From positions 259-64,258 of the forward strand of contig JBDTNH010000004.1 in NCBI GenBank assembly GCA_039933845.1: a stretch of 64,000 nt of DNA, given 5' to 3'. The notes below the pieces were generated by a model that did no database searches, was not told where the DNA came from, and worked only from the letters and a program-made list of their open reading frames with translations. This stretch comes from Gemmatimonadota bacterium. GTDB lineage: Bacteria; Gemmatimonadota; Gemmatimonadetes; Gemmatimonadales; GWC2-71-9. Position numbers and translations under genes: made by a program. This document shows, piece by piece, positions 34,121 to 61,277 of this stretch; position 1 is the stretch's first letter; each line of letters opens with the position of its first letter.

Positions 34121-34677
34121 CGCTGACTGTTGTGGACGAGACGGAGGAACTCCTCCCGCGTCTTGGCATCGTCACGGAAGCTGCCACGCATGGCCGAGGT
34201 GATCGTCCGACTCCCCTGCTTCTCCACCCCCCGCATCATCATGCAGAAGTGCGAGGCCTCGAGCACCACGCCCACGCCGAGCGGCGCAAGCGCCCCGACA
34301 AGTGCGTCGGCGATCTGATCGGTCATCCGCTCCTGCACCTGCAAGCGCCGGGCGAAGACATCGACGACCCGGGCGGTCTTGGACAGCCCCACGATCCGTC
34401 CGTCGGGGATGTAGGCGACATGTGCCACCCCGAAGAACGGCAGCATGTGATGCTCACACAACGAGTAGAACTCGATGTCGCGCACCACCACCATGTTCTC
34501 GTGCGACTCCTCGAACAACGCATCGCCGATGACTTGCTGGGCATCCATCGCATACCCACGTGTGAGATAGGCGAGCGCCTTCTCGACCCGTTCGGGGGTC
34601 CGCACGAGTCCTTCCCGCGCGGGATCCTCTCCGAGGGCGGCAAGGATGTGGCGCACCTGCTCCTGAATTTCGATCAC
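34117..34677 (-). CDS. folE: GTP cyclohydrolase I
   Basis: [14 protein letters not shown] and [24 protein letters not shown] start at 34677, just downstream of the MlaD stop. The 458-aa track ORF is an artefactual extension. Confidence 0.9.
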
Positions 34678-34688
34678 ACCGGCTCCGT

Positions 34689-35570
34689 TCAGAAAATCTT
34701 GACAGTGATCCCGACCTTCTCGGGATGCTTGGCGAGTGAATCGATCAGGGCGCTGGTCGCGTTCAGCGTCCGGGTCAACTCCGCATACAGCGTGGTGTCG
34801 GCCATCAGCTTGCCGAGTGTCCCCTCGCCGCGTGTGACACGGCCGAGGAGGGTGTCCATTCGGGCGGTGAGGCCAGCGAGTCGGTCGCTGGCGTTGCCGG
34901 CCTGCTTGAGCGTCGTGTCGACCCGCGCGGTGAGTGTCGCGGCATCGATGGCGGCCATGGTGGAATCCAGGCGAGCGGCCGTGACTTGCAACTGACGCAT
35001 CGTGGCGCCGACTTCGGCCGTGGGACCATTCCGCGCATCGGCGAGATAGGCCGTCAACCGCTGCGTGCTCGCGAGGGTCTTCCGGAGATCCGAGATCATC
35101 GCGGTGTCCAACATCTGATTGAGCGACGCCAGGGTGGTGGAGGCTTGCTCTGCCAGCTTGCCACCGATATCCATCAACCCGCTGGCGGTGGTGCCCTCGA
35201 TCACTTGATCCGGGCCGAGCGGCGCCCCATTGCCCGGATCGAAATCGATGGCCATGTCCCCGAGGAGACCAACCCCGACGAGCGCTGCGGTGGCCTCCGT
35301 CGTCGGCGTGACGAGCTCGTCGTCGTAGGTGATTTCCACCAGGACGCGCCCGGGACGTTCGAGGCGGATCGATTCGACCCGACCGATCACCGCGCCGGAC
35401 ACGTTCACCGGTGAGCCCTCCTTGAGCGTCTGCACGTCGGCGTAGGCGATCGCGACGCGAGGTGCATTGCCGATCGCGCTGCCCTTGAGCCACATGCCGC
35501 CGACAATGAAGGCCGTGACGCCGAGGACCACGAGCAGACCGACTGTCGCTTCCTTGTGGTATGAATGCAT
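34689..35570 (-). CDS. mlaD: MCE/MlaD family substrate-binding protein
   Basis: N-terminal TM helix followed by an MCE domain ([23 protein letters not shown]). ATG at 35570. Confidence 0.8.
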
Positions 35571-37163: not shown

Positions 37164-37889
37164 GTGAGCACCCCACCCAGCCTCGATCCTGCGAGCCAGC
37201 GGCGGCGATTCAAACGGCGACTCCTGAAATGGTTCCGTACCCATGGCCGTGACCTGCCGTGGCGTCGGACGCGCGATCCCTACCGAGTCCTCGTCTCCGA
37301 GATCATGCTCCAACAGACCCAGGTCTCCCGGGTCGAAGGATACTGGCATGACTTCCTTCGGCGCTTCCCCACCCTCGAGGCCCTGGCCCAAGCACGGCCG
37401 CGGTCGGTCCGCGAGGCGTGGTCTGGCCTCGGCTACTATCGCCGTGCCACAAATCTGCACCGTCTAGCCCGTGACGTCGTCCGCGAGCAGGGTGGCACAC
37501 TCCCCGACGATATTGACGCCCTCCGCGCCCTTCCGGGTATCGGCCCCTACACCGCCGGTGCGGTGGCCTCGTTCGCGTTCGAACGGAACGCCCCGGCGAT
37601 CGACACGAACGTGGGCCGCGTCCTCCGCCGCGTCTTCCATCCCCGAACGAAGGACAATGCCACCGGACGGCGTCGACTCGAGGCGACCGCCCGTGCCCTG
37701 GTGCCGCGCCCCGGCGCCGACGCGTGGATCACCAACCAGGCCCTGATGGAACTCGGCGCGCTCGTCTGCACCGCCCGAATCATGCGCTGTGACCGGTGTC
37801 CGGTGCGTCCTGCCTGTCGGACCGGCGCTCAAGCCGTGACGCCGGCAATCACCTCGACCGCCCGCGCGAGATCACGCGGAAGCACATAG
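37164..37889 (+). CDS. mutY: MutY-type adenine DNA glycosylase, catalytic domain only
   Basis: LPWRRTRDPYRVLVSEIMLQQTQV, GLGYYRRA, HhH GIGPYTA, and Fe-S loop CTARIMRCDRCPVRPAC. GTG start at 37164. Only 241 aa. Confidence 0.75.
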   Translation: MSTPPSLDPASQRRRFKRRLLKWFRTHGRDLPWRRTRDPYRVLVSEIMLQQTQVSRVEGYWHDFLRRFPTLEALAQARPRSVREAWSGLGYYRRATNLHRLARDVVREQGGTLPDDIDALRALPGIGPYTAGAVASFAFERNAPAIDTNVGRVLRRVFHPRTKDNATGRRRLEATARALVPRPGADAWITNQALMELGALVCTARIMRCDRCPVRPACRTGAQAVTPAITSTARARSRGST

Positions 37890-39073
37890 AGGTGCGTGCT
37901 CAATCGCAGGTACTCGTATCCGAACTCCGAGATCCGCCGGGTCCGGAATCCTGCCTCGCCGAGTACCCCCTGGAGGCGGTCGGCCCCGACACCGTCCTTC
38001 GTGAACGACACCATCGCACTCCGAAGTTCCTCAGTGCGTGGGGAGACCAGGCGGACACCCTTCACCTCCCGGAGCATCCCGTCCAGCGTGGTCGAGAGAC
38101 TCCGCGCTCGAGCCTCGATCGCGCGCCGCCCGATCGCATCCTGAAACTGCACCGCCGCGGCGAGTCCAGCGACCAGTGATTCGTTCGAGGTGCCGACATG
38201 CTCGAACCGCCGATAATCATCACGCGCCCAGTCGCCCGAGGCGATCAATGGCCAGGTCGACTCCAGACGGTCAGGGCGCGTGATGAGGAGGCCCGTTCCC
38301 TTGGGCGCCAACAGCCACTTGTGGGGCGAGGTCGCGTAGTAATCGGCATCGATCGCCGCGAGGTCGAGCGCGAGCATTCCGGGTGGATGCGCACCATCGA
38401 TCACCGAGATGATGCCGCGCTCACGGGCAGTCCGGACCAGGCGCGCCACGGGCTGGATCATCCCGGTCGTGAAGAGGATATGCGAGATCAGCATCACCCG
38501 CGTGCGTGGGCCGATCGCACGCACCCAGGCGTCGTGCAATTCGTCGGCGTCGCCCGGGTCGAGCGGTGGGTCGAAGGTGCGAACCGTCGTGCCGCGGCGT
38601 GCCGCGAGCAGGTCCCAGGCACAATGCCCCCCGATGTGCTCGTGCGATGTCATCAGGACCTCGTCGCCCTCGGCCAGGGTCAGTCCGTGCGCCACCAAGT
38701 TGACGGCCTCGGTCGTGTTGCGCACGATGGCAACGGAACCCGGCCACGCGCCGAGGAACCGCTCGAGCGCCACGTGCAAGGCCTCGAGATCGGGATGCTC
38801 CTGTCGCGTGATCCGCTCGAAGGCGCGCAGATGATGAATCGTCGCCTCGAGGACCGGGATCGGGCAGGCGCCGTAGGTGCCGGTGTTGAGATGGGTGCCG
38901 GCGATCACGAACTGATGCTGCAGTGACTCCCAGTCCGGGTCACCGTGACCACGGTTAAAAGTCGCTGGCCGATCCGCGGGATGCCGGCCGTGATCCACCG
39001 CCGCGGCCAGGCCCTGGAACCCAGGCAGCATCGCGCCCAGAGCGAGCAACTCGCGTCGCGTGAGCAGCGTCAC
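37829..39073 (-). CDS. TAT-signal aminotransferase class V-fold PLP-dependent enzyme
   Basis: MTLLTRRELLALGAMLPGFQGLAAA leader. Class V fold with SPHKWLLAPKG (PLP lysine region). Confidence 0.8.
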   Translation of the reverse strand: MTLLTRRELLALGAMLPGFQGLAAAVDHGRHPADRPATFNRGHGDPDWESLQHQFVIAGTHLNTGTYGACPIPVLEATIHHLRAFERITRQEHPDLEALHVALERFLGAWPGSVAIVRNTTEAVNLVAHGLTLAEGDEVLMTSHEHIGGHCAWDLLAARRGTTVRTFDPPLDPGDADELHDAWVRAIGPRTRVMLISHILFTTGMIQPVARLVRTARERGIISVIDGAHPPGMLALDLAAIDADYYATSPHKWLLAPKGTGLLITRPDRLESTWPLIASGDWARDDYRRFEHVGTSNESLVAGLAAAVQFQDAIGRRAIEARARSLSTTLDGMLREVKGVRLVSPRTEELRSAMVSFTKDGVGADRLQGVLGEAGFRTRRISEFGYEYLRLSTHLYVLPRDLARAVEVIAGVTA

Positions 39074-41297: not shown

Positions 41298-43094
41298 TCA
41301 GTAATCTACCGGGCGCAAATAGTATTCCCCGATCGCCGTGCCGCTCACCATGGCCGTGCTGGGCAGCCGGCGCTTCCAGTGGGTCGAGTCCAGTCGCCGA
41401 CGCACGATCGCCACCTCATCGGTCGTGTAGCCGGCGGTGGCCAAGGCATCCTCGCCGAAGCCCCGCAGGATGAGGTCCAGAATGCCGTCCGCGACCTGGT
41501 AGGTCGTCCCGAAATCAGCTTCGTCGGTTTGATCCGCCACCAGGTCGGCGGTCGCCGGCTTGTCAACGATCGCTGCCGGTACCCCGACGTGGCGAGCCAG
41601 CGCCCAGACCTGCGTCTTGAAGAGATCACCGATCGGGTTGATGGGAGGTGAGTCGTCAGCGTGCCAGGTGAAGTACCCGAGCAGTCGCTCACTCTTGTTG
41701 CCGGTGCCGAGCGGCAGGGCCTGGAGTCCGGCCGAGAGGTCGAACAGCGTGGTCATCCTGAGACGAGCCATCACATTGCCGAGCCGAGCTGGGGAGAGCG
41801 TTTCGGCGGTTGCGGCCGCATAGCCATCGACCGCGGCCGTGATATCGATGGTACGCTCCTCGATACCGAGCGCCTCAGTGACGATGCGGGCATGATCGAG
41901 CGACGCCACGCTCGAGGACCGATACGGCATGCGAACCGCGATCACCCGGTCGGGCCCCAGCGCCTCGGCCGCGAGCCAGGCGACCAGAGCCGAGTCCACG
42001 CCGCCCGAGAGCCCGAGTATGACGCGATCAAATCCCCGACGGCGCCCCACCTCATCGCGGAGGAACTCCACCAGCCAGGTCCGCGCCAGGACCGGATCGA
42101 TGGCCAATCGCTCGGTGGCCGTGGGCACGCTGACCACCCCGGTGAAGGCTGGGGAATCACCGTTTCGATCTGGGCCGAGCGAAGGCTCTTCGCCGAGCGA
42201 CACGGCGCGTTGGCGCGCCCGACCGAGTGCCTCGATCAATTGGGGGAGCCGGAGTTCCAAATCAGCCAGCAACGGGGAATCGGCCCGAACCCGCGACACC
42301 GCCTCCAAGTCGATGGTGTGACGAATCACGGCGTCCTCGAACAACGGACCTCGGGCCAGGACCTCTCCGTCCGGGCCCGTGAGGAGCGAGCCGCCCGGAA
42401 ACCCCTTGCCGCCCTCGAATCCCACCAGTTGGGACATCGCGACGAACACCCCATGCTCGCCGGCGATGTCGCGCGCGAGCCGATCCCATCTGGCGATCGA
42501 GCCGGGCTGCCCCGGGTGCACCGGATCCGGGGCGAGCCCGCGTGCCGGACTCGCCGCAAGTACCGCGATCAGCTGTGCGCCGTCGACGGCGGCAATGGTC
42601 GCCGCCAGCGAATGCCAGGCGTCCTCGCAGATCAGCATCGCCACCCGGCCGAATCGGGTCTCGAACGCCCGGATATCCGAGCCGGCCTCGACGAACCGTT
42701 CCTCATCGAAGACGCCATAGGTCGGCAGGAACAACTTGCGGTGCACGTGACGAATGCCGGCATCCCCCCCCCCGAGCGTGGCCCACATCGCGGAATTGTG
42801 GAGCCGGCCGTTCCAACGCTCGTAGAACCCGAGGACGATATCAATCGGGGCGGTTGCTGCGGACGAGTGACGACGGCGCAGTGCCTCGAACAGCGACTCG
42901 GCCGTGACCGCGTGCTCACGAACGCCGCCCTCGAGGAAGTACCCGGTCGTGGCCGTTTCGGGGAGGATGAGGAGCTCAGGTCGTGCTGAGCCGTGACCAA
43001 GCGAGTGCAGGAGCCCGCCGATCCGATCCAGATTCTCGCTCGGGCGACCCTTGCTGGGGCGGAACTGGCAGAGGGCGATAGGGACCGGACGCAT
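41298..43094 (-). CDS. nadE: glutamine-dependent NAD+ synthetase
   Basis: N-terminal CN-hydrolase domain (ICEDAWH) and C-terminal PP-loop GLSGGVDSA. ATG at 43094. Confidence 0.9.
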   Translation of the reverse strand: MRPVPIALCQFRPSKGRPSENLDRIGGLLHSLGHGSARPELLILPETATTGYFLEGGVREHAVTAESLFEALRRRHSSAATAPIDIVLGFYERWNGRLHNSAMWATLGGGDAGIRHVHRKLFLPTYGVFDEERFVEAGSDIRAFETRFGRVAMLICEDAWHSLAATIAAVDGAQLIAVLAASPARGLAPDPVHPGQPGSIARWDRLARDIAGEHGVFVAMSQLVGFEGGKGFPGGSLLTGPDGEVLARGPLFEDAVIRHTIDLEAVSRVRADSPLLADLELRLPQLIEALGRARQRAVSLGEEPSLGPDRNGDSPAFTGVVSVPTATERLAIDPVLARTWLVEFLRDEVGRRRGFDRVILGLSGGVDSALVAWLAAEALGPDRVIAVRMPYRSSSVASLDHARIVTEALGIEERTIDITAAVDGYAAATAETLSPARLGNVMARLRMTTLFDLSAGLQALPLGTGNKSERLLGYFTWHADDSPPINPIGDLFKTQVWALARHVGVPAAIVDKPATADLVADQTDEADFGTTYQVADGILDLILRGFGEDALATAGYTTDEVAIVRRRLDSTHWKRRLPSTAMVSGTAIGEYYLRPVDY

Positions 43095-43154
43095 GTCACA
43101 ATCTACCCGCGTCGATTCGTATATTCCCTGCTTCTCGACCATCAGGAGCGTGCC

Positions 43155-45275: not shown

Positions 45276-45704
45276 TCAAGCCCTGGAGGTATCCCGGCCG
45301 CCGTTCCAGCGATGCCAGTACATGCGCAGTTCGGTGATCCGATGACCGTCGGTCTCGGCGAACAGCGCTCCCCGGGCGTCGACCCACTGCCCCGACTTTC
45401 GGCGCCGGAAGACCAGGCGAAATTCGGTGCTGAACCAGAGGTCCCCGGCGGTGAAGATCTCGCCCACGGTGAACCGCGGTTCAGACTGGCTGTACGGGAT
45501 ATCAGCCGCCCAACTCCGCATGGCGGCAATGCCCCTGATCGGCTCAGAGAATGGCGTCTCGAGAAACGTGCACTCCTCGGCGAACACTTCCATCATGGTG
45601 TCGATTCTGGCCTTGCTCCAGCTGCGAGCGAGGGTTTCCGCGAGCGCGCGCGCGCGCAGAGTGAACGGGAGCTCGAGCTCCGAGTTGTCGTCGTCCGTGC
45701 TCAT
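45276..45704 (-). CDS. NTF2/SnoaL-like fold protein
   Basis: About 140 aa, and its ATG overlaps the kinase stop (ATGA). The fold assignment is weak. Confidence 0.5.
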   Translation of the reverse strand: MSTDDDNSELELPFTLRARALAETLARSWSKARIDTMMEVFAEECTFLETPFSEPIRGIAAMRSWAADIPYSQSEPRFTVGEIFTAGDLWFSTEFRLVFRRRKSGQWVDARGALFAETDGHRITELRMYWHRWNGGRDTSRA

Positions 45705-48613
45705 GGTTTCCGCCCGCTCAGGGTATCCTCGATGGGGCGCTCGCCGCTCAAGCGGGTGATGGCCTCGCGGACTGCGTCGGCCACCGGTTGGTAGGCTGAG
45801 TCTGGGTGATCCCAAAGGCTCAGGAATCGCTGATAATGGACCCGTGCGGAATCGGCTTGCCCGGCGGCCTCAAAGATCGAGCCCAGGGCTCGCTCGCGGG
45901 CAGTAAAGAGTTCCAGCGAGTTGGGGAACCCCCATCGTAGGCGAGTAAGGGCGGCGGTGCGGTGGCTCGGGATTCTTGCCTCAAGCAGCGCGTACCGAAT
46001 CTGGAAGGGCGCGGTGAAGGTGGCGAACCCGAGTGAGCTGCCGATCAATTGGATCCCGCTGTCTGCCAAGACCAGCGCGCGGGCGGTGTCCCCCTTGGCC
46101 GCCGCCGCGAGCCCGATGATCCCGACCAGAGTGCCACGAATGGGCCGCTGCAGGGTGTCCGGGTTGCCGAGCAGGACTCGGGCAATCGCCTCGGCCTCGT
46201 CCGGCCTGCCCATTTCGACTGCCAGGAGGGCGCGCCACGTGCCCAGGTACGAATTCGGATTCCGGGCATTTGCGATGGCGAATCCCGAGTCAATTTGCGC
46301 GAGTCGGCGTGCGGTCTCGAATCCGGAGAGCATCGGCAGCAGGGGGATGTAGCCGGCCGCTTCTCCGAGGCCTGCTCCCTCGCGCTGAATGTATGCGCGC
46401 GCGCTATCGATTCGGGCCGTCGAGGCGGAGATCAGCCCCACGATGAGGTCCATCTGCGGGCCGAAGGCCTGTCCATCCATGGTGCGTGCGAGGCCGCGCA
46501 GGAGCTGGATGAGGCGGGTGCCGCTGATGGAATCAGCGGTGAGCTTCGAGGTCAAGGTAGCAAAGGCCATCCCACTGCCGATGGCGTCACCAAACATCGC
46601 CGCGATCGCGCTGTCGGACCCCGCCATCGCCTGACGGACCAGGCGGACTCGCTCCAGCTCCGCCGTGGCATTCGCAGCCCGGAAGACCGACTCGTATCGC
46701 CCGATCAGCCCGGTGTCGTGCTGAATGATGGCGAGTTCGAGCGGGTGGATCGCCGCCTGGGTCAGCGTCGAATCGATCCCGAGGACGCGGTCGAATGGGG
46801 CGCGGAGTTGGTCGGGCGGCAGCGGCCGATAGGACCGCCCGTGAAACTGCGCTTCACCGAGGAGATACCAGCCGTCGGCATCATCGGGATGCGCGCGAGT
46901 GTAGGAGGCGGCAGAGTCTATCGCCGAATTCTCGGCACGATTGAACAAGTCCGACGCGTAGAGCAGTGACCGGAGTCGAGGCGGAAGCGAATCCGAGTAC
47001 CTGACCGCATTGGCGGAGGCGGCGCGGGCGATCGGGCCTTGGTACGCTCCCTTCCATCCCAAGGTATTGGCGAGCTTGTACCAGGCCAGCGCGAAGGTGG
47101 AGTCCTCGCGCACCGATTCCTCGAAGGCAGATTGTGCACTGTCCCATTCGCCGCGGCGGTGATACCGCTCCCCTTGCAGGTACGCCCGGATGGCCGGGAC
47201 CGAGTGCGAACGGATGCCCGACGCGTTGGCCGACGGCAGCGGCTCCCGGGAACGCCAGATGTCGCGAAGCAGCGAGAGCGCCAATGTGTTGGAGAGCGTC
47301 AGCACCGAATCGGCGGGACCGTCGACCGACGCGCGTGAAAGTTCCTTGCCATTCAGGTCATAGAGCTGGGCGCTGAGGCGGGCGGTTCCACCGGTGGTGA
47401 TCACGCTTCCCATCAGGACCGAGGCCGCCTTCGTGCTCCGTGCCACCGCGAGCGCATCCTGGAGATCACCAGCGCCCCCATCCACCTGGCGGTGCCACTC
47501 CCGGATCACGCTGCGCGGCTCGATCGTCTCGATGTCGCCGACCCCGCTCAGGGAGCCCGCGAGCAGGTCAACCATTCCCTCGCCGATTCCCTCGAGACCT
47601 GGGCCCGTCGTGGCGAACGGGACGATCGCAATCGATTCTGCCCCCGAGATGACCGTGCGCGGGGGACCGGCAAAGAATACTCCCCAGATCACGGCAGCGG
47701 CCGTCACGGCGACGGGCAGGATGATGGCAAGTCGCTTCCACCGGCGGCTTTCACGCGTGGCCGCGGCGACGCCTGAGCTCTCCTGCGTCACCGCACGCGC
47801 GAAATCGGTGATGTTCGCGAACCGGTCTTCCGGATCGGTCGACATCGCGCGCTTGGTCGCGTTATCCACCTCGGCCGGGATGCCATCAACCACGCTCGAG
47901 AGCAGCGGTCGCGGCGCGGTGAGGATCGCCGTCAGCATGGCCTGCATCGTGGGGCCGGCAAACGCCTGCCGTCCGGTGACCAGCTCGAAGAAGACGCACG
48001 CGAGCGCATATTGGTCGCTCCGAGCATCGACCTCGTCGGCGGTCGCCTGTTCGGGGCTCATGTAGGCCGGGGTCCCGATCGCCATGCCCGAGCCGGTGAG
48101 GTTGCTCTCGGAGCGAGACGCGTCGACGGCTCGTGCGATCCCGAAATCGGCGACCACGGCATGACCGCCGGAGAGCATGATGTTCTCCGGCTTGATGTCC
48201 CGGTGCACGATACCATGGGCGTGGGCGTGCGCCAGTCCACTGGCTGCTTCCTGGATGATCACGGCGGCTCGCGGCAGCGCGATCCTGCCCTCGCGCTGCA
48301 TCAGGTCACGCAGCGATTCGCCCTCGATGAAGGGCATGACATAATAGAGGATGCCGTTGGCAGATCCCGAATCGTAGACGGGGACGATGTGTGGGTGCTG
48401 GAGCTTCGCGGCGAGCTCAATCTCGCGAAGAAAGCGTTCCCCACCGAGGGACGCGGCGAGCTCAGGGCGGAGCACCTTGATGGCGACTTGGCGATGGTGC
48501 TTCAAGTCTTCGGCGAGATACACGGTCGCCATGCCGCCTTGGCCGACCTGACGGTCGAGCGCATACTGGTCCTTCAGTGCATCGGCGAGTCGCTCCAGCA
48601 TCCTGTCGGTCAT
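45701..48613 (-). CDS. membrane Ser/Thr protein kinase with a large TPR-like C-terminal region
   Basis: GQGGMATVY, VAIKVL, HRDIKPENIM, DFGIAR, YMSPEQ. One TM helix (LAIILPVAVTAAAVIWGVFFA). About 640 aa of helical repeats. Confidence 0.9.
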   Translation of the reverse strand: MTDRMLERLADALKDQYALDRQVGQGGMATVYLAEDLKHHRQVAIKVLRPELAASLGGERFLREIELAAKLQHPHIVPVYDSGSANGILYYVMPFIEGESLRDLMQREGRIALPRAAVIIQEAASGLAHAHAHGIVHRDIKPENIMLSGGHAVVADFGIARAVDASRSESNLTGSGMAIGTPAYMSPEQATADEVDARSDQYALACVFFELVTGRQAFAGPTMQAMLTAILTAPRPLLSSVVDGIPAEVDNATKRAMSTDPEDRFANITDFARAVTQESSGVAAATRESRRWKRLAIILPVAVTAAAVIWGVFFAGPPRTVISGAESIAIVPFATTGPGLEGIGEGMVDLLAGSLSGVGDIETIEPRSVIREWHRQVDGGAGDLQDALAVARSTKAASVLMGSVITTGGTARLSAQLYDLNGKELSRASVDGPADSVLTLSNTLALSLLRDIWRSREPLPSANASGIRSHSVPAIRAYLQGERYHRRGEWDSAQSAFEESVREDSTFALAWYKLANTLGWKGAYQGPIARAASANAVRYSDSLPPRLRSLLYASDLFNRAENSAIDSAASYTRAHPDDADGWYLLGEAQFHGRSYRPLPPDQLRAPFDRVLGIDSTLTQAAIHPLELAIIQHDTGLIGRYESVFRAANATAELERVRLVRQAMAGSDSAIAAMFGDAIGSGMAFATLTSKLTADSISGTRLIQLLRGLARTMDGQAFGPQMDLIVGLISASTARIDSARAYIQREGAGLGEAAGYIPLLPMLSGFETARRLAQIDSGFAIANARNPNSYLGTWRALLAVEMGRPDEAEAIARVLLGNPDTLQRPIRGTLVGIIGLAAAAKGDTARALVLADSGIQLIGSSLGFATFTAPFQIRYALLEARIPSHRTAALTRLRWGFPNSLELFTARERALGSIFEAAGQADSARVHYQRFLSLWDHPDSAYQPVADAVREAITRLSGERPIEDTLSGRKP

Positions 48614-48721: not shown

Positions 48722-49858
48722 GTGGCCAGTGCATTTCGTGTGACCGACATCCGCGTTGGCCATTCTGCCGATGGCTCGCACGAACTCAGCGCAGATCTCG
48801 GCGGGGAACGTGTCTGGTTCCGCGTCCCCGAGGACCGCGCGCTCGACTTCCGCGGTGATGCGCTCGCGGTGGCTGGCCTGTTGCCCGCGATGCTGCGGGG
48901 GACAGCGCTGGAAGTCGATGCTGAGGCCCCCATTTGTCCAATCCTCCTCGGAAACCTTCACGCCCTCCAACATGTCTTTCAGCTGTGGGGACCCGCCTTT
49001 GGTCTGGTCCTCAAGGTCATCCCGATCCGCGTTGCGACGTCCCCCGCTCCGCCCGGGCGGGAGATCGGCGCGTTCTTCTCGGGCGGGGTGGATGGCACCC
49101 ATACCCTGCTTGAAGCTCCCGAGCCCCCAGAGGTCGCCGCGATGGTGCGAGGGGTGGATTTCCAGCTCGACAATCCCGTGTACGACGAGAGCCTGGCTCG
49201 AAACCGGGCGTGGCTCGCACCCCGCGGCATCGCATTGATCCCTATGAGCAGTAATCTTCGCTGGGTTGCGCGATCCCATGGACTCGGCTGGGGCGCCTAC
49301 TTCGGAGCAGGGCTCGCGGCCTTCGCGCACGTATACGGATTTCGCAAGACCTGGATCGCTGGCGGCCACAGTTGGAAACATCTGCTGGTGGAAGGGTCGC
49401 ATCCGTGCACGGACCATCTGTGGTCAAGCGAGACCCGCACCATCCAGCATCACGGGCGCGACAGCTTGCGCTGGGAGAAGCTCGAGCGAATTGCCAAGGA
49501 ACCGGGGGCGCTTGAAATCCTTCGGGTCTGCTGGCAAGACAACGGGTTTAATTGCGGCAAGTGCGAGAAGTGCCTCCGGACGATGGTGACACTCAGATTG
49601 CTCGGCCTCACATCGGCGAACTTTCCGCCGCTCGATGACCTGCGGCTTGTCGCGCGATTCAAACCGGCCGATGAGAGCGAGGCGATCTTCATCGAGGAAG
49701 CGATCGCGCTCGGGATTCAACGTCGTGACGCAGCTGTTGTAGGGGCTCTACAGTCCTCGCTTCGACGATACCGACTGCGCGGACTTGCCCGTGATGCCGA
49801 CACTCTCCTGCTGGGAGGCCTCCTCAACCGAGCACGCAATTCACTGAAACGGGGGTAG
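48722..49858 (+). CDS. QueC/ExsB-like PP-loop superfamily protein, paralog 1 (uncharacterised)
   Basis: FFSGGVDG at 49079-49096 and Cys cluster CWQDNGFNCGKCEKC at 49529-49573. Aligns over its full length with the two following ORFs. GTG start with AGAGG upstream. Confidence 0.7.
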   Translation: MASAFRVTDIRVGHSADGSHELSADLGGERVWFRVPEDRALDFRGDALAVAGLLPAMLRGTALEVDAEAPICPILLGNLHALQHVFQLWGPAFGLVLKVIPIRVATSPAPPGREIGAFFSGGVDGTHTLLEAPEPPEVAAMVRGVDFQLDNPVYDESLARNRAWLAPRGIALIPMSSNLRWVARSHGLGWGAYFGAGLAAFAHVYGFRKTWIAGGHSWKHLLVEGSHPCTDHLWSSETRTIQHHGRDSLRWEKLERIAKEPGALEILRVCWQDNGFNCGKCEKCLRTMVTLRLLGLTSANFPPLDDLRLVARFKPADESEAIFIEEAIALGIQRRDAAVVGALQSSLRRYRLRGLARDADTLLLGGLLNRARNSLKRG

Positions 49859-49859
49859 G

Positions 49860-51029
49860 ATGACCAGTCGAACCACGCCGTACCGCCTCCAGAAGTTCGT
49901 GGTGACCGAAGGGCCGAAAGGTCACCGCGTCAGCGCGGCGCTCGACGGGAGCGAAGTCTGGTTCGAGAGCGAGGGATTTGGGGCACCACACGAAGCAGGA
50001 AACGCCTTCCTCTCCGTCGCGCTCCTTGCCGCGATGGCGGAGGGTCGTGATCTCGACATGTCCGACTTGCCACCGGTCTCCCCGAAGCTCCTCGACGCCG
50101 TGCCCACCGTGCAGGCGATCTGGACCCAATGGAATCCGCGCCTGTCGGCCATCGAGGTCCGCGCCAACCGATCCCAGCACGCCGAACCAGGCACGGGCGA
50201 GAGCCTCTTCTTCTCAGGCGGCATTGACGCGACGCACAGCGCGCTTGAGGGAACGCCGGGGCGGCAACTTGTTTTTGTTTCAGGCTTTGACCACGCGGTC
50301 GACCGCGAAATCGTTCCGACCACCACCGCCCGACTCGCGCGACTCGCTCAGCAGCTCGGATCGTCCCTGACCATGGTCGAGAGCAATTGGGTCGAGTGGC
50401 GACGTGATCGCCGGCTCTCGGGTGCGCTGATGCACGGAGGTTGCCTGACTGCTGTGGCCCACCTGCTCGGCCACGGCCACATCACGATCTCTTCGTCGAA
50501 CTCGTTCAAGCGCCTGACACCGTGGGGTACGCATCCTCTGGTGGATCCGCTCTGGTCTTCGGAACGCACCACGATCCACCACTGGGGCAATGACTGCAGC
50601 CGAGCGGAAAAGATCGCGCGTGTTGTCCGAGAGCCGGCGCTTCACGCCGATCTCTGGGTCTGCCACGAGCGCCAGATTGGCAACTGTGGTCACTGCGCCA
50701 AGTGCGCGCGGACCCGCTTGGCGTTCCATCTGCTGGGGAGTGAACTGCCGACCGAGGGGGGCACGACGCTCAGCGACCCTGTAACGGCGTACCTGCCACA
50801 CCTCAAGAGCGGTTCCGAACACGTCTACATCGAGGAAATGCAGGTGCTGGCGCGCGCCGCGGGGCATGATCAGGCGCTCCACCTGCTCGAGCGCGGAGCG
50901 CGACGGCTCGCGCGACGCCACCTGCTGCGCGACCTCCGAAATGCCGCCTTCACCGGTTCCGCACAACGCCGCATGGCGACGACCGATCTGCAGCCCTGGG
51001 GCTACGGCCCCGCGCCGAGGTCACTGTGA
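49860..51029 (+). CDS. QueC/ExsB-like PP-loop superfamily protein, paralog 2 (uncharacterised)
   Basis: FFSGGIDA (SGGIDA at 50214-50231) and CHERQIGNCGHCAKC. ATG lies 1 nt after the paralog 1 stop. Confidence 0.7.
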   Translation: MTSRTTPYRLQKFVVTEGPKGHRVSAALDGSEVWFESEGFGAPHEAGNAFLSVALLAAMAEGRDLDMSDLPPVSPKLLDAVPTVQAIWTQWNPRLSAIEVRANRSQHAEPGTGESLFFSGGIDATHSALEGTPGRQLVFVSGFDHAVDREIVPTTTARLARLAQQLGSSLTMVESNWVEWRRDRRLSGALMHGGCLTAVAHLLGHGHITISSSNSFKRLTPWGTHPLVDPLWSSERTTIHHWGNDCSRAEKIARVVREPALHADLWVCHERQIGNCGHCAKCARTRLAFHLLGSELPTEGGTTLSDPVTAYLPHLKSGSEHVYIEEMQVLARAAGHDQALHLLERGARRLARRHLLRDLRNAAFTGSAQRRMATTDLQPWGYGPAPRSL

Positions 51030-52147
51030 CGCTTCGAATCACGGAGCCCCGACGGACGCCGCGCGCGGACGGACTCGTCCGGCACTCGGCCCAGGTGGAT
51101 GGCCAGGAGCTCTGGTTCGACGTACCATCCGACCGCTCGGGAGAGCTCCGCGGCGAGGCGTTCCTGGCCTGCGTGATCATTCCAGCCATGGCCAGGAATT
51201 CTGCCGTCGAGGTCGATCCGGCGCTCCCGATTTGCCCCGACTTCCTCGCCGGATTGCTGGCGTACATGCAAGTGGTCCGCTTCTGGTCCGACGAAATTGG
51301 GCACCGGCTCTGCCCGGTCCCGATCCGCGCCGAGACCGAGCCTCCCTCCCCGGGCATCGGCACGCTGTCCTTCTTCTCGGGTGGGGTCGACGGGCTCTAC
51401 ACCCTGCTCGAAGAACGACCCCGGATCACCGAAACGGTGTTCTGCCACGGGGTCGATTTCCAACTCGGCAGTGCGCTCGCCGCCCAAGCCACGAGCCGAA
51501 ACCGCGCGTGGCTGGCCGATCACGACCTCCCGCTGCTCGAGATGGCATCCAATGCGCGCTTCGTCGGCCACCACCTTGGCATCGGATGGAATGCGCACAA
51601 TGGTGCCTGCCTTGCCGGCTACGGTCATGCCCTCGGGGCTCGGGAGATCTTGATCGCGTCGGGCCACGCCTGGAGCGACTTTCTGGGGGGGGGAACTCAC
51701 GTACTCAGCGACCCGCTGTTGTCCTCGGCCGCGACACGCGTTCACCATCACGGATTCGGCCCGATGCGATGGCAGAAGCTCCTCCGGGTCCTCGCCGAAC
51801 CTGGGGTGGACGAGCTGCTTCGGGTCTGCTGGCAGGACAAGGACTACAACTGTGGCGAATGTGAAAAGTGCCGCCGCACCATGCTGGACCTGCACCTCCT
51901 GGGGGTGACGTCACCCGCCTTCCCCTCGACGGCGCGCCTGACGGATGTCATCCCAAGTCGAGTGCACGACTGGGAGTCCGCCTGCTACATGCGTCAGACG
52001 CTCTGCCTCGCCCAGCACGTCGGGCGCCGCGACGCAGAAGCGGTGGTGCAGTCCCGTCTCCGAGACTGGGACCGACGCCAATGGCTGCGTCGAGCCGACA
52101 CGGCCTTCCTCGGCGGCGCCCTCCGCCGGTTGAAGCAACGTCGTTAA
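51026..52147 (+). CDS. QueC/ExsB-like PP-loop superfamily protein, paralog 3 (uncharacterised)
   Basis: FFSGGVDG (SGGVDG at 51377-51394) and CWQDKDYNCGECEKC. GTGA overlap with the paralog 2 stop. Confidence 0.7.
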   Translation: MTLRITEPRRTPRADGLVRHSAQVDGQELWFDVPSDRSGELRGEAFLACVIIPAMARNSAVEVDPALPICPDFLAGLLAYMQVVRFWSDEIGHRLCPVPIRAETEPPSPGIGTLSFFSGGVDGLYTLLEERPRITETVFCHGVDFQLGSALAAQATSRNRAWLADHDLPLLEMASNARFVGHHLGIGWNAHNGACLAGYGHALGAREILIASGHAWSDFLGGGTHVLSDPLLSSAATRVHHHGFGPMRWQKLLRVLAEPGVDELLRVCWQDKDYNCGECEKCRRTMLDLHLLGVTSPAFPSTARLTDVIPSRVHDWESACYMRQTLCLAQHVGRRDAEAVVQSRLRDWDRRQWLRRADTAFLGGALRRLKQRR

Positions 52148-52184
52148 CGGTTGTTGGACGGTGCCGCTCAAGGCGCCAGCAGCC

Positions 52185-53573
52185 TCACCCGAACCACGCC
52201 TGTCCCTCCTGCACCAACAACCAGGCGTTGAGCACCGCGATGATCAGTGCCACCGTCCAGGCGAAGAACTTCGTGACGGGTTGGTTCGCAAAACTCCCCA
52301 TCTTGGCCTTGGACGAGGTGAACAGCACCAACGGGATCACGGCGAAGGAGAGCTGAAGGGAGAGAATCACCTGGCTCAGGATCAGAAGCGAGCCCGTCCC
52401 TCGTTCGCCGTACATCGCCGTCACGATCACGGCCGGAATGATGGCGATCAACCGGGTGATGAGTCGACGGAGCCAGGGCGGCAACCGGATGTCGAGGAAG
52501 CCTTCCATGACAATCTGCCCCGCGAGCGTGCCGGTGATGGTGGAGTTCTGTCCCGACGCCAGCAGCGCCACCGCGAAGAGCACACTCGCGAACACACTGC
52601 CGAGCAGGGGAGTCAGCAGGGCGTGGGCATCATGAATGTCGGCCACCGACTCGTAGCCGGTGCCGTGAAAGGTCGCCGCCGAGAGGATCAGGATCGCCGC
52701 ATTGATCAGGAAGGCGAAGCAGAGTGCCAGGGTGGAGTCGATGGTCGCCCACCGAAGAGTCTCGCGCTTGTCGGTGTCCTCGCTGCCGATGTAGCGCACC
52801 TGCACAATCGCCGAGTGCAGGTACAGGTTGTGTGGCATCACCGTGGCACCAAGAATCCCGAGCGCGATGTACAACATCAACGGGTTGGTCACGATCTGGG
52901 TGGTCGGGACGAGTCCCTGCATCAGCGGAGCGATCTCGGGACGCGCCAACACCATCTCCACGGCGAACGCCCCGCCAATCACGGCGATCATCGCGATGAC
53001 GAATGCCTCGAGGTAGCGGAACCCCTTCGCCTGCAGCAGCAGGATGAGCAACACATCCGCCGCGGTGAGCAGCACGCCGTAGAGCAGCGGAATCCCGAAG
53101 AGCAGGTTCAGCGCAATCGCCGAGCCGATCACCTCGGCGAGATCACACGCCGCGATCGCGATTTCGCACAGGATCCAGAGAACGAAGGACACCGGACGGG
53201 AGTAGTGGTCACGACATGCTTGGGCCAAGTCGCGCCCGGTCACAACGCCAAGCTTGACCGCCAGTGCCTGGAGCAGCATCGCCATCAGGTTCGAGATCAG
53301 GATCACGCTGAGCAGGGTGTACCCGAACTGCGCCCCTCCCGCAATATCCGTTGCCCAATTGCCGGGGTCCATGTAGCCGACGGCGACCATGTAGCCGGGG
53401 CCCGCAAAAGCGAGCAACTTGCGCCACCATGGCCCACCCCGCGGAATCACGACCGAGCGGAACGCTTCGGGAAGCGATGGATGCCGGCGCGGGTGGCGCC
53501 ATCCGGCATCGGAGACGCCGTCAATCGACCCTGGGACCGAGGCGGTTCGGGGAGAGGCTTCTGGAGTGCTCAC
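52185..53573 (-). CDS. mntH: Nramp family divalent metal (Mn2+/Fe2+) transporter
   Basis: [20 protein letters not shown] (DPGN motif). About 11 helices. 462 aa. Confidence 0.9.
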
Positions 53574-54253
53574 GCCGGCTCCCCCACGACACAGAGGACC
53601 AAAGTCGCGAGATCATGCCCGATCACTTGGTGGCTCGTCCCTCGGCGCAGTGCGATGGGGCCATCAAATGGCTGTCGTGACACCACCGTGATGGTGGTCC
53701 CCGGGATGAGACCCTCACTGGCCAGCCATCGCAGCCGATCACCATCGGCGGTGTCGACACGGGCAATCCGGACCACGGTCCCATTCGCAACGACGGTGAG
53801 TGGTGTCGTCTCCCTGGGAGTCAACGAACCATCGACGCCGGGAATCGGATCGCCGTGCGGATCGAAAGCGGGGTTGCCGAGCGCCTCGGCGAGACGTTCA
53901 ACGAGGTCATCGCTCACGGCATGCTCGAGACGCTCGGCCTCCGCGTGCACCGTGTCCCACGTGTAGCCGAGGCGCGCCACGAGGTAGGTCTCGATGAGTC
54001 GGTGGCGCCGAAGCACACGGAGCGCCTCGCGCCTCCCGCTCCGGGTCAAGGTCGCACCGCGGTATGGCTCGTGGACCACGAGTCCCTGTTCGGCCAGCCG
54101 TTTGAGCATCCCGCTCACTGAGGGTGCGGCCAGCGCGAGCGTCTCGGCCACCGCGTTCGTGGATGCCGGTTCGCCACCTTCAGAAAGGTGGTAGATCGCC
54201 TTGAGATAGTCCTCGACCGACCGGGTCAATTCAGGGCGCGGCTTTTTAGTCAT
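53570..54253 (-). CDS. mntR: DtxR/MntR family metal-dependent transcriptional regulator
   Basis: N-terminal w[16 protein letters not shown], dimerisation domain, and FeoA-like C-terminus. 4-nt overlap with mntH. Confidence 0.8.
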
Positions 54254-58320: not shown

Positions 58321-58700
58321 AGCAGGATGGTGTTCGACCGTGAGGGCGTCGTCGACAGACTCCGCGGGTGCAGTGCCCGGCCACGTTACCCGCAACCGCG
58401 CGAGACATTTTTCGCCTGATCGGCGCCGCTTTACTTTCGGTACCGAGCGTGGCGTCCGTCCCGCCCGACCCCGACACGCCGCTCTGGCAAGTCGGCATGC
58501 TGGGCAGCTTGCCCTGCTGGTGGACTCCCCGTGACCCACGCTCCGCCCGGAAGCGTGCCCATCGTCTAGCTCGCAGCGGTCACCTCGGCCTGATCCTCAG
58601 TGGCGAGACCTCGGGCCAACACGAGCTGATCGTGACGATTCGGCCCTGCCTGCCGTTCCGCGTCGTCCCACCACTCCACCAATCGCTCGGCCTCACTCGG

Positions 58701-61277
58701 ATGAGTCACGCGGCGCCAACCGGGTCCCGCCTGGGCGATGCCATCGCCTTCGCGAAGGCGCTCGATCTTGATGCCCAGGGACGGGAAACATTCCAACGCC
58801 TGCGTGGGGTCATGGCCGTGGCTGCGCCGGATCTGCGAGGGTCCACCGAGCCTGCCGATCGACAAACCTGGCTCCTGCTCCAGGTCACGCGACTGCTCTT
58901 CCTCCGATTCGTCGAATCGGAGGGATGGCTCGATGGCTCGGTCACTTTCCTGCGCGATGCCGTGGATCAGGTCCTGACCTCCTGCAAGGACCCCGGCCGC
59001 GAGTTGCTCGAGCCGCTGTTTTTCGGAACGCTCAACCGTCCTCGCGATCGGCGGAATACTCGATCGCGGCAATTCGGCACGATCCCATTCCTCAATGGTG
59101 GTCTCTTCGAACCACATGCCCTCGAACGGGCGCACGCGTGGCGACTCCCTCGTGATCGCTGGCGTGAGTTGCTGGATGCCGTGATCAACTCGACCGAAGT
59201 GTCGCTCGACCTCGATGCCCATCCGGACACGATCTCTCCCGAGATGCTGGGTCGGATCCTCGAGGGACTGATGGACCCCGAGGAACGCTCCCGTGCCGGC
59301 GTGTTCTACACACCACCCGCGCTGGTCGAGGTCGTCGTCCGTGAAGCGGTGGCATGTCACATGGCCGCACGCCTCGGTCGCTCGGAGAGTCAGATCCACG
59401 ACGCGCTCGACGCTCCCGACCCGGATTTGGTCATGCACCTTCGGAGACTTCGCGTCCTGGATCCGGCGGTCGGGTCGGGCGCCTTCCTCGTCGGGGCACT
59501 CCACCTACTGCGACGAGGTGCCGGCAGTTCGACGGCGCTCACGCGTCGCCTGATCACCAGCAACCTGCATGGCATCGATCGCAATCCGACCGCGGTCCGC
59601 GTCACGGAGCTGCGTCTGTGGCTCGAGCTCCTGCGCACGATGCGAGGCACTCGGGCCGATGCCGTCGACCCCCTCCCCAACCTCGATGCGGCGATACGAG
59701 CTGGAGATGCGCTGATCGACCCGCTCGAGGGTCGCCGGATTCCCTCGCACCTGATCGCGACACTCCAGCGGGCACGGCACCAGGTTGAGGCCGCTCATGG
59801 CAGCGCACACCACGCGGCACAGCGTCGGCTCGTTGTCGCGGAGCGCGCCGCGATCGATGCGGCACTCGGAGAGGAACTCGCCCGACTCACCGCGCAGCGC
59901 AGCGAGGCACTCGACGCCGGGAGCGCCGCCACACTCTTTCCGGATGCCGCCGCACCGGTCGCGGCGCCAGTCGATCTCGACCAGGCCATCACACGTGTCA
60001 CGCAAGAGCGCGAGGCTCTCGCGCGTGATGATCGCGCCGCCACCTTTGCCATCGAGAGTGCCTGGCCCGACGTGCTCGCCGATGGTGGCTTCGACCTCGT
60101 GATTGGCAATCCCCCGTGGGTGCGTTCGGAACGACTCCCCCCCTTGATGCGTGGTCGGCTCGCCGCGCGGTATCGGTGGTGGCATACCACGGGCACGGGA
60201 TGGCCACACCCACCGGATCTCGCCGTGGCCTTCGTCGAGCGTGCGTTTCGCTTGATTCGTCCGGGTGGGACGTTCGGACTCCTTGTCCCGGGGAAACTCG
60301 CCACAACCGCGTATGCCTCGGTCGCTCGAGCGGCATTGGTGCGCGAGGCCACGATCCACACGGTCGCCGATCTCGCCGACGATCCGCGGGCGGCGTTCGA
60401 CGCGACGACGTACCCGTTGGCACTGGTGGCCAGTCGCACACCGCCGGTCACGGAGCATCTCATCCGACGGAGCCTCGACCGCGGCGCAAGCGTCGTCCCG
60501 CAGTCCGCATGGCGAGGGGTGCGGTCGTGGGTCGGTACGGACGGCACCAGTACGGGACTGCTGCGTCGGCTCGCCTCGGACCATCCAACGGTGGCAACAA
60601 CCCACACCCCGAGCATCGGCGTCAAGACCGGAGCCAATGCGATCTTTTTGGATCCACCCGACGACCTTGACGCCTGGACAAGACCAGCGATTCGCGGCCG
60701 CGACATCGGGATCCACGGACTCACGGTGCGTCACCGGATCCTCTGGCCGATCGATCCCTCAGGTACCCCTTGCCGGGTGCTTTCTTCCGCAGTGCAACGC
60801 TACCTCGCCCCATTCGAGGCGCGCCTGCGGCACCGTGCCGATCAGGTCAGGGGGCCATGGTGGCAGATCTTCCGGATCGGGCCGGCTGCATCACGGTGGC
60901 GAGTGATCTGGCCAGACATTGCCACGGGACTCCGCGCGATCTCGCTCGAGAGCCCCGAGCCCGTCCCGCTCAACAGTTGCTATGTCGTGCCGTGCCTTTC
61001 GCGCGAACGGATGCTCCGTCTCGCGGCCTGGTTGTCCGTCTCGTGGATCAGGGCACTCGCCCGGATGGGCGCCGAGCGCGCTGCCGGTGGCCACCACCGC
61101 TTCGGTGCACGCGTCGTTGCCGGCCTTCCCTGTCCGGAGGCGGTCTGGAACGATCGTTGTTTCGACCCAACCAGTGATGCCACGGCGGCCAGGCGCGACG
61201 AACGCGCCGCGGAGCTACTCGGATTGGACCAGGATCACCGTGTCGCGCTCGCTGCACTCGCGCCGTCTCGTCGCTGA
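58701..61277 (+). CDS. PglX/Eco57I-like gamma-class N6-adenine DNA methyltransferase
   Basis: FLNGGLFEP, FYTPP, motif I VLDPAVGSGAFL (59454-59489), motif IV NPPW (60108-60119), and TaqI-C-type TRD signature IGVKTGANAIF. The frame is open upstream to 58368. Confidence 0.85.
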   Translation: MSHAAPTGSRLGDAIAFAKALDLDAQGRETFQRLRGVMAVAAPDLRGSTEPADRQTWLLLQVTRLLFLRFVESEGWLDGSVTFLRDAVDQVLTSCKDPGRELLEPLFFGTLNRPRDRRNTRSRQFGTIPFLNGGLFEPHALERAHAWRLPRDRWRELLDAVINSTEVSLDLDAHPDTISPEMLGRILEGLMDPEERSRAGVFYTPPALVEVVVREAVACHMAARLGRSESQIHDALDAPDPDLVMHLRRLRVLDPAVGSGAFLVGALHLLRRGAGSSTALTRRLITSNLHGIDRNPTAVRVTELRLWLELLRTMRGTRADAVDPLPNLDAAIRAGDALIDPLEGRRIPSHLIATLQRARHQVEAAHGSAHHAAQRRLVVAERAAIDAALGEELARLTAQRSEALDAGSAATLFPDAAAPVAAPVDLDQAITRVTQEREALARDDRAATFAIESAWPDVLADGGFDLVIGNPPWVRSERLPPLMRGRLAARYRWWHTTGTGWPHPPDLAVAFVERAFRLIRPGGTFGLLVPGKLATTAYASVARAALVREATIHTVADLADDPRAAFDATTYPLALVASRTPPVTEHLIRRSLDRGASVVPQSAWRGVRSWVGTDGTSTGLLRRLASDHPTVATTHTPSIGVKTGANAIFLDPPDDLDAWTRPAIRGRDIGIHGLTVRHRILWPIDPSGTPCRVLSSAVQRYLAPFEARLRHRADQVRGPWWQIFRIGPAASRWRVIWPDIATGLRAISLESPEPVPLNSCYVVPCLSRERMLRLAAWLSVSWIRALARMGAERAAGGHHRFGARVVAGLPCPEAVWNDRCFDPTSDATAARRDERAAELLGLDQDHRVALAALAPSRR

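Follow-up and report, generated by a model that had tools for sequence, protein, structure and literature searches.

In the 64,000-nt stretch of DNA from a Gemmatimonadota bacterium analysed here (contig JBDTNH010000004.1; the whole stretch is hereafter called the window), three tandem genes encode members of an unnamed and uncharacterised family within the PP-loop superfamily; its N-terminal domain is distinctive, and its hetero-paralogs occur in an obligate arrangement. We propose tentatively, with a little less than even confidence, that their products (types A, B and C) are the subunits of a hetero-oligomeric PP-loop enzyme, an adenylating ligase or amidotransferase, from a large family that has so far gone undescribed. 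In each subunit, an N-terminal domain of about 110 amino acids (aa) would precede a Rossmann-like core with the PP-loop, followed in turn by a four-Cys site of the QueC type and by a helical domain at the C-terminus. The three open-reading frames (ORFs) and their main features are as follows.

48722..49858, + strand: ORF1, A-type paralog; GTG start, 378 aa; N-terminal domain, PP-loop core, Cys cluster and C-terminal helical domain
49079..49096, + strand: PP-loop of ORF1, SGGVDG, residues 120-125
49529..49573, + strand: Cys cluster of ORF1, C270-x7-C278-x2-C281-x2-C284 (CWQDNGFNCGKCEKC)
49856..49862, + strand: ORF1/ORF2 junction, TAG-g-ATG, with a 1-nt spacer
49860..51029, + strand: ORF2, B-type paralog of a deeply divergent orthogroup, with a WVCH motif; ATG start, 389 aa
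50214..50231, + strand: PP-loop of ORF2, SGGIDA, residues 119-124
50661..50705, + strand: Cys cluster of ORF2, C268-x7-C276-x2-C279-x2-C282 (CHERQIGNCGHCAKC)
50985..51026, + strand: B-specific C-terminal tail of ORF2, DLQPWGYGPAPRSL, consensus DLxPWGxGPxPE
51026..51029, + strand: ORF2/ORF3 junction, a GTGA stop/start overlap indicating translational coupling
51026..52147, + strand: ORF3, C-type paralog, of the sister group of A; GTG start, 373 aa
51377..51394, + strand: PP-loop of ORF3, SGGVDG, residues 118-123
51827..51871, + strand: Cys cluster of ORF3, C268-x7-C276-x2-C279-x2-C282 (CWQDKDYNCGECEKC)

A first-pass annotation of this DNA had described three coupled forward-strand ORFs of 378, 389 and 373 aa that align with one another from end to end. 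Its coordinates and both junctions (TAG-g-ATG and GTGA) agree with ours, and the paralogy is seen in the alignment together with the motifs that it quoted: FFSGG(V/I)D(G/A), then DHLWSSE, DPLWSSE or DPLLSSA, and finally VC-x7-C-x2-C-x2-C-xRT. Over the full-length alignment, ORF2 and ORF3 are 33% and 44% identical to ORF1, respectively, and each of the three ORFs scores 367-526 bits against the hidden Markov model (HMM) of the family, far above chance. ORF1 is the same as the NCBI protein ABI542_01255 of the metagenome-assembled genome except for its start codon; the NCBI start (P0001) lies six codons downstream and gives 372 aa, which is immaterial here. The GC content is even across the locus (0.62-0.68), and there is thus no sign of recent horizontal transfer. 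In 48.3-52.5 kb, neither a promoter/terminator scan nor a comparison with Rfam gave a match, and no riboswitch (preQ1 or other) was recognized.

The family to which the triplet belongs is very large. A word-indexed search, which understates its extent, returned 126 relatives, nearly all of them annotated as 'hypothetical', and at least 593 loci, distributed over many bacterial phyla and the Bathyarchaeia, came to light when the GTDB species genomes were scanned with a pattern. When 1.84 billion cluster representatives were searched exhaustively with the HMM, 9,861 matched at E ≤ 1e-3, of which 4,891 did so at E ≤ 1e-30. All of the inspected records are 'hypothetical', save for those with fusion partners and a single automatic UniRef name, '7-cyano-7-deazaguanine synthase'. 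A Pfam scan of the three window proteins found nothing significant (DUF6395 alone, with E near 0.1-0.2), NCBIfam and PADLOC gave no match at E ≤ 1, and profile sequence searches of the PDB yielded nothing significant, the best relevant match being the PP-loop of a GMP synthase (E = 0.45). We could find no literature on the family, on DUF6395 or on a pairing of PP-loop proteins with pyruvyl transferases, and on QueC-like proteins together with polysaccharide only phage genome papers were found. The earlier statement that the triplet matches no known system therefore stands in so far as the family is uncharacterised and has no whole-fold match; however, the family is widespread, and its likely role, the decoration of glycans through adenylation chemistry, has precedents. 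The N-terminal domain, which had been taken for an unassigned extra module, turned out to be an integral part of this very large family and is common to DUF6395 proteins. If our reading is true, a large enzyme family is now invisible to annotation, with neither a Pfam nor an NCBIfam model to cover it.

In 59 sequences, G122, D124, D231, R250, K253 and the four Cys residues are invariant, and all of the family-invariant residues are retained in the three window paralogs; pseudoenzyme status for one of them was considered and rejected on this ground. The PP-loop matches [ST]GGxD[STGA] in 88 of 107 members and is exactly SGGxDS in 51, with FFSGGVDS as the consensus of the broad family. C(x6-10)CxxCxxC occurs in 103 of the 107; a spacing of 7 or 9 is dominant, and one of 8 is found in only six members.

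A tree of 221 sequences and group-specific HMMs defined three orthogroups: A (ORF1 type), C (ORF3 type), which is the sister group of A, and the deeply divergent B (ORF2 type). Their genes are arranged in three orders in the window and in related loci (designated here by L numbers).

A-B-C: the window and L012
B-C-A: L004, L008 and L091
B-A: L009, L010, L011, L089, L090, L095 and L096

The triplet, whose conservation the first-pass annotation had left to be checked, is thus kept beyond the source genome, in L004, L008, L012 and L091. A recent local triplication was considered and rejected, the tree giving three old orthogroups with permuted order.

B-type genes were found at 13 independent loci, every one of which has an A-type gene in the same array. 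The junction after B was scored in 12 loci, and in 11 of these the stop codon of B and the start of the following A- or C-type gene either share 4 nt or are no more than 1 nt apart (at some loci there was a choice of in-frame starts); no start was scored by the script in the twelfth, L095, where the junction reads TGATG by eye. B-type proteins are further marked by the WVCH motif and by the tail DLxPWGxGPxPE, which is near-invariant in 10 B-type sequences and is found in neither A nor C. In the predicted model of ORF2, the tail sits in the least confident 10-residue block (predicted local distance difference test, pLDDT, 72), and it is a candidate for a flexible docking peptide. Two or more family copies exist in 16 of 80 GTDB loci, and 19 long proteins among the best 150 representatives contain two full copies in a single chain. 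From the co-occurrence of B with A or C, the conserved coupling, the B tail and the natural two-copy fusions, we infer a hetero-oligomer of B and A (or C); the obligate co-occurrence, coupling and fusions strengthen what had been suggested from the window alone. B would pair with an A-like partner (A or C), and translational coupling would lead to the subunits being made together. Many PP-loop enzymes are homodimers, and the obligate arrangement of B with A (or C) would offer a tractable case of such usually homodimeric enzymes evolving into heteromers.

Some copies in the arrays are altered. The middle copy of L008 (3689-4804), a degenerate C-like gene with a low score, has lost the PP-loop, and the B copy of L012 (963-2123) has SGGVHS (Asp to His) in the PP-loop and CISC replacing CxKC; because of these two, inactive subunits may be present in some arrays. 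The PP-loop or the Cys cluster has also been lost in one half of several two-copy fusions. In L091, an ORF of 140-152 aa with weak similarity to the family lies between the C and A copies (6546-7004). This ORF is probably what is left of a fourth copy that has decayed and, if so, would represent copy-number turnover at a syntenic site.

AlphaFold2 models of ORF1 (pLDDT 96.7; predicted template-modelling score 0.93) and ORF2 (93.8 and 0.93) have the same order of secondary structures. In both, residues 1 to about 110 are modelled as a small beta-sheet with two helices, followed by a Rossmann-like core, in which the first strand leads through the SGG loop into a helix, by the Cys cluster and by a C-terminal helical domain; in ORF1 the PP-loop is placed between strand 113-118 and helix 123-131. 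The plausible Foldseek matches in the PDB are all PP-loop enzymes (TtuA, MnmA/TrmU, LarE, ThiI, YcfA and GMP synthetase), with probabilities of 0.5-0.97 and E ≥ 0.01, and are local to the core. Among viral structures (BFVD), phage proteins that carry a QueC annotation rank first (E = 3.8e-5, probability 1.0, target-normalised template-modelling score 0.54), and an 'adenine alpha hydrolase' is matched as well. Because the plausible local fold matches and the best BFVD matches are of the PP-loop type, predicted membership of the PP-loop ATP-pyrophosphatase (AANH) superfamily is well supported, and the succession of a PP-loop core and a four-Cys site noted earlier is backed by both conservation and predicted fold.

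How QueC-like the core is can be judged from the motifs of QueC itself, which has SGGxDS followed by a C(x)8CxxCxxC zinc motif (PMC13329287) and for which the substrate and catalytic motifs YxQxHxxE, VPxRN and YPDC have been defined experimentally (PMC13329287). In an hhalign comparison, a profile of 107 family members was collinear with nearly the whole of QueC (family 114-306 with QueC 2-215; E = 1.7e-4, probability 49%), K253 being paired with QueC K165, W271 with Y189, and the four Cys residues with the Zn motif; the C(x)7CxxCxxC variant of all three window proteins aligns to this motif. The QueC profile was shallow, since the homolog search with E. coli QueC yielded only sequences at least 81% identical. 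The hhalign scores were 36.8 for an AsnB-like protein, 31.7 for QueC, 29.7 for TtcA, 28.5 for TilS, 27.1 for NadE and 26.6 for MnmA. None of the window proteins matched Pfam QueC (PF06508) at E ≤ 1, and the gathering score was never reached; E ≤ 0.01 was obtained for only six of 107 members (best 8.2e-5). Such weak matches are generic, because the NadE protein encoded in the window, used as a control, matches Pfam QueC comparably well (E = 2e-5) via its PP-loop. The motifs YxQxHxxE, VPxRN and YPDC were found in 0 of 107 family members, versus nine of nine QueC sequences. So, of the QueC-like layout claimed earlier, the motif order, the equivalents of K165 and Y189 and a spacing variant of the Cys cluster are seen, but QueC does not stand out from other PP-loop enzymes in the profile scores, and the substrate motifs are lacking. 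In short, the family appears by these comparisons to combine a PP-loop core, whose C-terminal Lys-helix and Cys segment are of the QueC type, with a different substrate pocket, and it is outside PF06508. A protein should not be called QueC-like, nor deazaguanine chemistry assumed for it, on the strength of a PP-loop plus CxxCxxC.

This bears on the possibility that the three proteins are paralogs of QueC with 7-deazaguanine or some other nucleobase as their substrate, and serve either to modify DNA or tRNA (Dpd-like) or to defend against phages by protein deazaguanylation (QatC- or Cap9-like). The motif order, the QueC-annotated top BFVD neighbours, the one UniRef homolog name and a type II restriction-modification-like methylase about 6 kb downstream agree with such a role. 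However, in addition to the missing motifs and the generic profile matches, QueC was not in the top 50 PDB fold matches of the ORF1 or ORF2 model, PADLOC was blank, and no cluster of this kind is described in a 2026 survey of the QueC family. No TGT, QueD, QueE or Qat gene was found among the annotated genes flanking the triplet (about 31.5-61.3 kb, a span not scanned ORF by ORF), nor were DpdA/B, QatA/B/D, Cap10 or a CD-NTase found in these flanks or in the related loci inspected, which contain no que or tgt genes. That the expected partners of QueC are missing nearby, as had been noted, is thus in agreement with the annotated part of the flanks, and folE, which had been placed some 14 kb away in unrelated surroundings, was located there as a GTP_cyclohydroI domain in the ORF 34117-35493 (- strand), about 14 kb upstream. 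We regard action on deazaguanine or another nucleobase as highly improbable; the earlier idea of a nucleobase, nucleic-acid or defence function found nothing in its support, the context of the family being polysaccharide biosynthesis.

Another reading of the four Cys residues is that the proteins are iron-sulfur (Fe-S) sulfurtransferases of the TtuA, LarE or TtuI type, in which a [4Fe-4S] cluster would deliver sulfide to an adenylated substrate and give a thio-carboxylate or thio-sugar. The best PDB fold matches are TtuA (5b4f) and LarE (8cp3/8cnz), CxxCxxC can bind Fe-S clusters, and two family copies flank a DUF362 gene in L016 (8459-9955), L018 (8462-9928) and L020 (8675-9991), from Aminicenantes and Acidobacteriota; the domain was found by Pfam scan in L016 and L020, and the gene in L018 was placed by membership of the same neighbour cluster. 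DUF362 proteins are often Fe-S-associated. Yet the fold matches are weak (E of about 0.01 or higher) and concern the shared Rossmann core only, and the spacing of the four Cys residues and their position after the last core strand align with the structural Zn site of QueC. In Fe-S PP-loop enzymes the cluster Cys residues lie in the active site, with one Fe left free. Moreover, the known Fe-S PP-loop enzymes use three cluster Cys residues, such as the three that bind the cluster in LarE (PMC13329287), whereas the family has four, and no recurrent sulfur-carrier or cysteine-desulfurase partner was seen in the neighbourhoods. An Fe-S sulfurtransferase is thus a rather improbable identity, and the four-Cys site of the proposed ligase probably binds Zn, as judged by its alignment.

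For the wider family, which recurs in bacterial and archaeal loci for surface polysaccharides, the gene context indicates glycans. In the 80 GTDB loci, the ORFs up to 5 kb on either side of the family gene were all clustered and the recurrent clusters were annotated, with the following result.

GT2 glycosyltransferase: 23 of 80 loci
GT4 glycosyltransferase: 17 of 80 loci
Polysaccharide pyruvyl transferase, PF04230 (PS_pyruv_trans): 16 of 80 loci, mostly directly adjacent or overlapping
ABC transporter: 10 of 80 loci
AsnB-like amidotransferase: 6 of 80 loci, directly adjacent in four of the six
Polysaccharide deacetylase: 5 of 80 loci
NAD-dependent epimerase/dehydratase: 3 of 80 loci

At least one neighbour of glycan type was found in 45 of the 80 loci, and Bac_transf is among the other direct neighbours. 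Two family copies are fused to a pyruvyl transferase in P0123 and P0127 and to GT2 in P0124, and single copies are fused to a FemAB/CelD-type domain (P0262) or to a GNAT acetyltransferase (P0114). On plasmid p4 of Azospirillum brasilense (L133; NZ_CP032348, 288898-291283), a pyruvyl transferase gene and a 'hypothetical' family gene form an isolated pair with unrelated flanks, which is a genetically tractable site at which to study function. A plasmid of Priestia megaterium (NZ_CP109861; L134) carries genes for UDP-glucose dehydrogenase, a glycosyltransferase, a pyruvyl transferase, two tandem family copies, a GT-D glycosyltransferase and GalU, with a separately annotated DUF6395 protein on the opposite strand. 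Further neighbours include ATPgrasp_ST genes adjoining the family gene in L001 and L003, and an AlaDh_PNT (alanine-dehydrogenase/PNT-type) gene between two family copies in L030 (11588-12721; Ignavibacteriota); this gene and the DUF362 genes may be additional pathway partners. In L011 a GT4 gene adjoins the module, and in L090 the B-A doublet overlaps an AsnB-type amidotransferase gene.

A sugar-modifying PP-loop enzyme with such surroundings is already characterised, namely NASAT (WbuX, WbpG, PseA; PDB 8WEX), a protein of some 400 aa in which the PP-loop lies around residue 122 and four Cys residues bind Zn; it is dimeric in the crystal and is encoded in lipopolysaccharide or capsule clusters (PMC10607449). 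The window proteins could be amidotransferases of this kind, which would convert a sugar N-acetyl group into an acetamidino group with ammonia from a glutaminase partner. The similar size and PP-loop position, the Zn tetracysteine and the lipopolysaccharide-cluster setting agree with this, as do the AsnB-type amidotransferases adjacent in six GTDB loci and in L090. However, the window proteins matched no NCBIfam family at E ≤ 1 (NCBIfam presumably includes the WbuX/NASAT model TIGR03573), 8WEX was unlisted at E ≤ 10 in the PDB profile search and outside the top 50 fold matches of both models, the Cys pattern differs, and no HisH/HisF-like WbuY/WbuZ partner was seen. A NASAT-like amidotransferase, though feasible in its chemistry, is therefore very unlikely.

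Because of the glycosyltransferase neighbours and the pairing and fusion with pyruvyl transferases, the most likely substrate of the wider family would be an acidic substituent of a cell-surface glycan, for example a pyruvyl ketal or a uronic acid. In the proposed hetero-oligomeric ligase, for which we infer ATP-pyrophosphatase activity, the PP-loop would bind ATP, a carboxylate or carbonyl oxygen of the substrate would be adenylated with release of pyrophosphate, and ammonia or an amine would then attack the acyl-AMP, yielding a product of the amide type. More specifically, A, B and C might work with pyruvyl transferases to install an undescribed glycan decoration, such as amidation or aminoacylation of pyruvyl-ketal or uronic carboxylates, with the N-terminal domain and the B tail serving in substrate recognition and subunit assembly; this extension is possible but rather unlikely. 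If our reading of the wider family is right, knowledge of the reaction would probably provide a new glycan modification and better annotation of thousands of exopolysaccharide, capsular polysaccharide and O-antigen clusters.

Several points weigh against a hetero-oligomeric, glycan-directed ligase. The PP-loop of the window clade is SGGxD(G/A) and not the canonical SGGxDS, no whole-fold PDB match was obtained at E ≤ 1e-3 for the ORF1 or ORF2 model by Foldseek, the case for a heteromer is drawn from genomics throughout, and the four-Cys site is by sequence compatible with either Zn or Fe-S. In addition, the inference of a glycan substrate is carried over from more distant members: the sole glycan-type gene near the triplet is a GT2 gene 4.3 kb downstream, with no pyruvyl transferase, and the triplet and its syntenic relatives L012, L089 and L091 lie between Ser/Thr kinase and Nramp/DtxR genes.

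It is conceivable, then, that the A/B/C module of Gemmatimonadota has left glycans and ligates or amidates a soluble metabolite or peptide, for instance a metallophore or a secondary metabolite. No glycan neighbour is conserved in the A/B/C clade, its syntenic site includes Nramp, a DtxR-type regulator and the Ser/Thr kinase, a class-V aminotransferase and a GNAT gene lie directly upstream in L004, and HAD hydrolase and M20 peptidase genes are neighbours in L002 and L019. However, no non-family neighbour is conserved across the A/B/C loci, and thus nothing points positively to another substrate, while the GT2 gene is found at the same distance downstream in L012 too, GT4 stands by L011 and an AsnB-like gene by L090. 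We consider this departure from glycans unlikely, though a real alternative for this triplet.

Around the triplet, the order DUF4384, SnoaL, Ser/Thr kinase, module, Nramp and DtxR-type regulator is syntenic in several relatives, with varying module composition, and the DUF4384-SnoaL-kinase block is syntenic in L089 and L091. In the window, the SnoaL_2 ORF (45276-45815, - strand) overlaps the 3' end of the Ser/Thr kinase gene (45701-48613, - strand) by about 115 nt, and its true start is therefore probably further downstream than called. The ORF at 52161-53966 (+ strand, 601 aa) is an antisense shadow of the Nramp (MntH) gene (52185-53573, - strand) and no gene. About 6 kb downstream of the triplet, 58368-61277 (+ strand) encodes a 969-aa protein with Eco57I, N6_Mtase and MmeI_Mtase domains, which looks like a type IIG/IIL-like restriction-modification fusion. 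Another PP-loop enzyme, the glutamine-dependent NAD+ synthetase mentioned above (CN_hydrolase and NAD_synthase domains), is encoded at 41298-43142 (- strand). Class-V aminotransferase genes are located in the window at 37829-39073 (- strand), 10 kb upstream of the triplet, and in L004 at 5523-6800, directly upstream of its triplet; a conserved aminotransferase link was rejected, the two enzymes being merely 30% identical.

Compared with known systems, the family resembles QueC, QatC and Cap9 in that the PP-loop opens a Rossmann-like core and a C-x(n)-CGxCxxC site comes late, and it resembles QueC in having an aromatic residue after the first Cys (Y189 in QueC; W or H in the family), a Lys on the preceding helix (K165 in QueC; K253 in the family) and, as expected chemistry, carboxylate adenylation followed by amide formation. 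It differs from QueC in the Cys spacing (x7 or x9, against x8), in the additional N-terminal domain and C-terminal helical domain (about 110 and 90 aa, respectively), in its tandem hetero-paralog arrays, and in its context of glycan genes and not of queD, queE, tgt or defence genes. NASAT is similar in size and in the position of the PP-loop, whereas its Cys pattern is CxxC-Xn-[GN]xCxxC, against C-x7-CxxCxxC in the family. TtuA, LarE and TtuI are the best PDB neighbours of the Rossmann core and are likewise Cys-rich, but these matches are local, with template-modelling scores of 0.17-0.35, and the positions and number of the Cys residues differ.

A remote relative is DUF6395 (PF19932), exemplified by a Priestia protein, which has the N-terminal domain and PP-loop in common with the family (hhalign probability 79%, E = 1.6e-5, family 32-192 with DUF6395 28-182). 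The DUF6395 model also weakly matches the Cys-cluster segment in 14 of 107 members, and its cut-off of 25 bits was not reached by ORF1 (12.7) or ORF3 (11.9), ORF2 giving no match. DUF6395, likewise uncharacterised, thus looks from these profiles to be a remote sister group, and the window proteins are outside its Pfam definition. AsnB-type (WbpS-like) proteins, in which a PP-loop synthetase domain amidates carboxylates, gave the top pairwise hhalign score and are frequent neighbours; unlike the family, however, they have a glutaminase domain at the N-terminus but no Cys cluster, and Pfam Asn_synthase was never reached by family members. The chemistry proposed here would be that of QueC, NASAT and AsnB, and the undescribed decoration, in which pyruvyl transferases and A/B/C would act together, can be likened to the logic of MurA followed by MurC.

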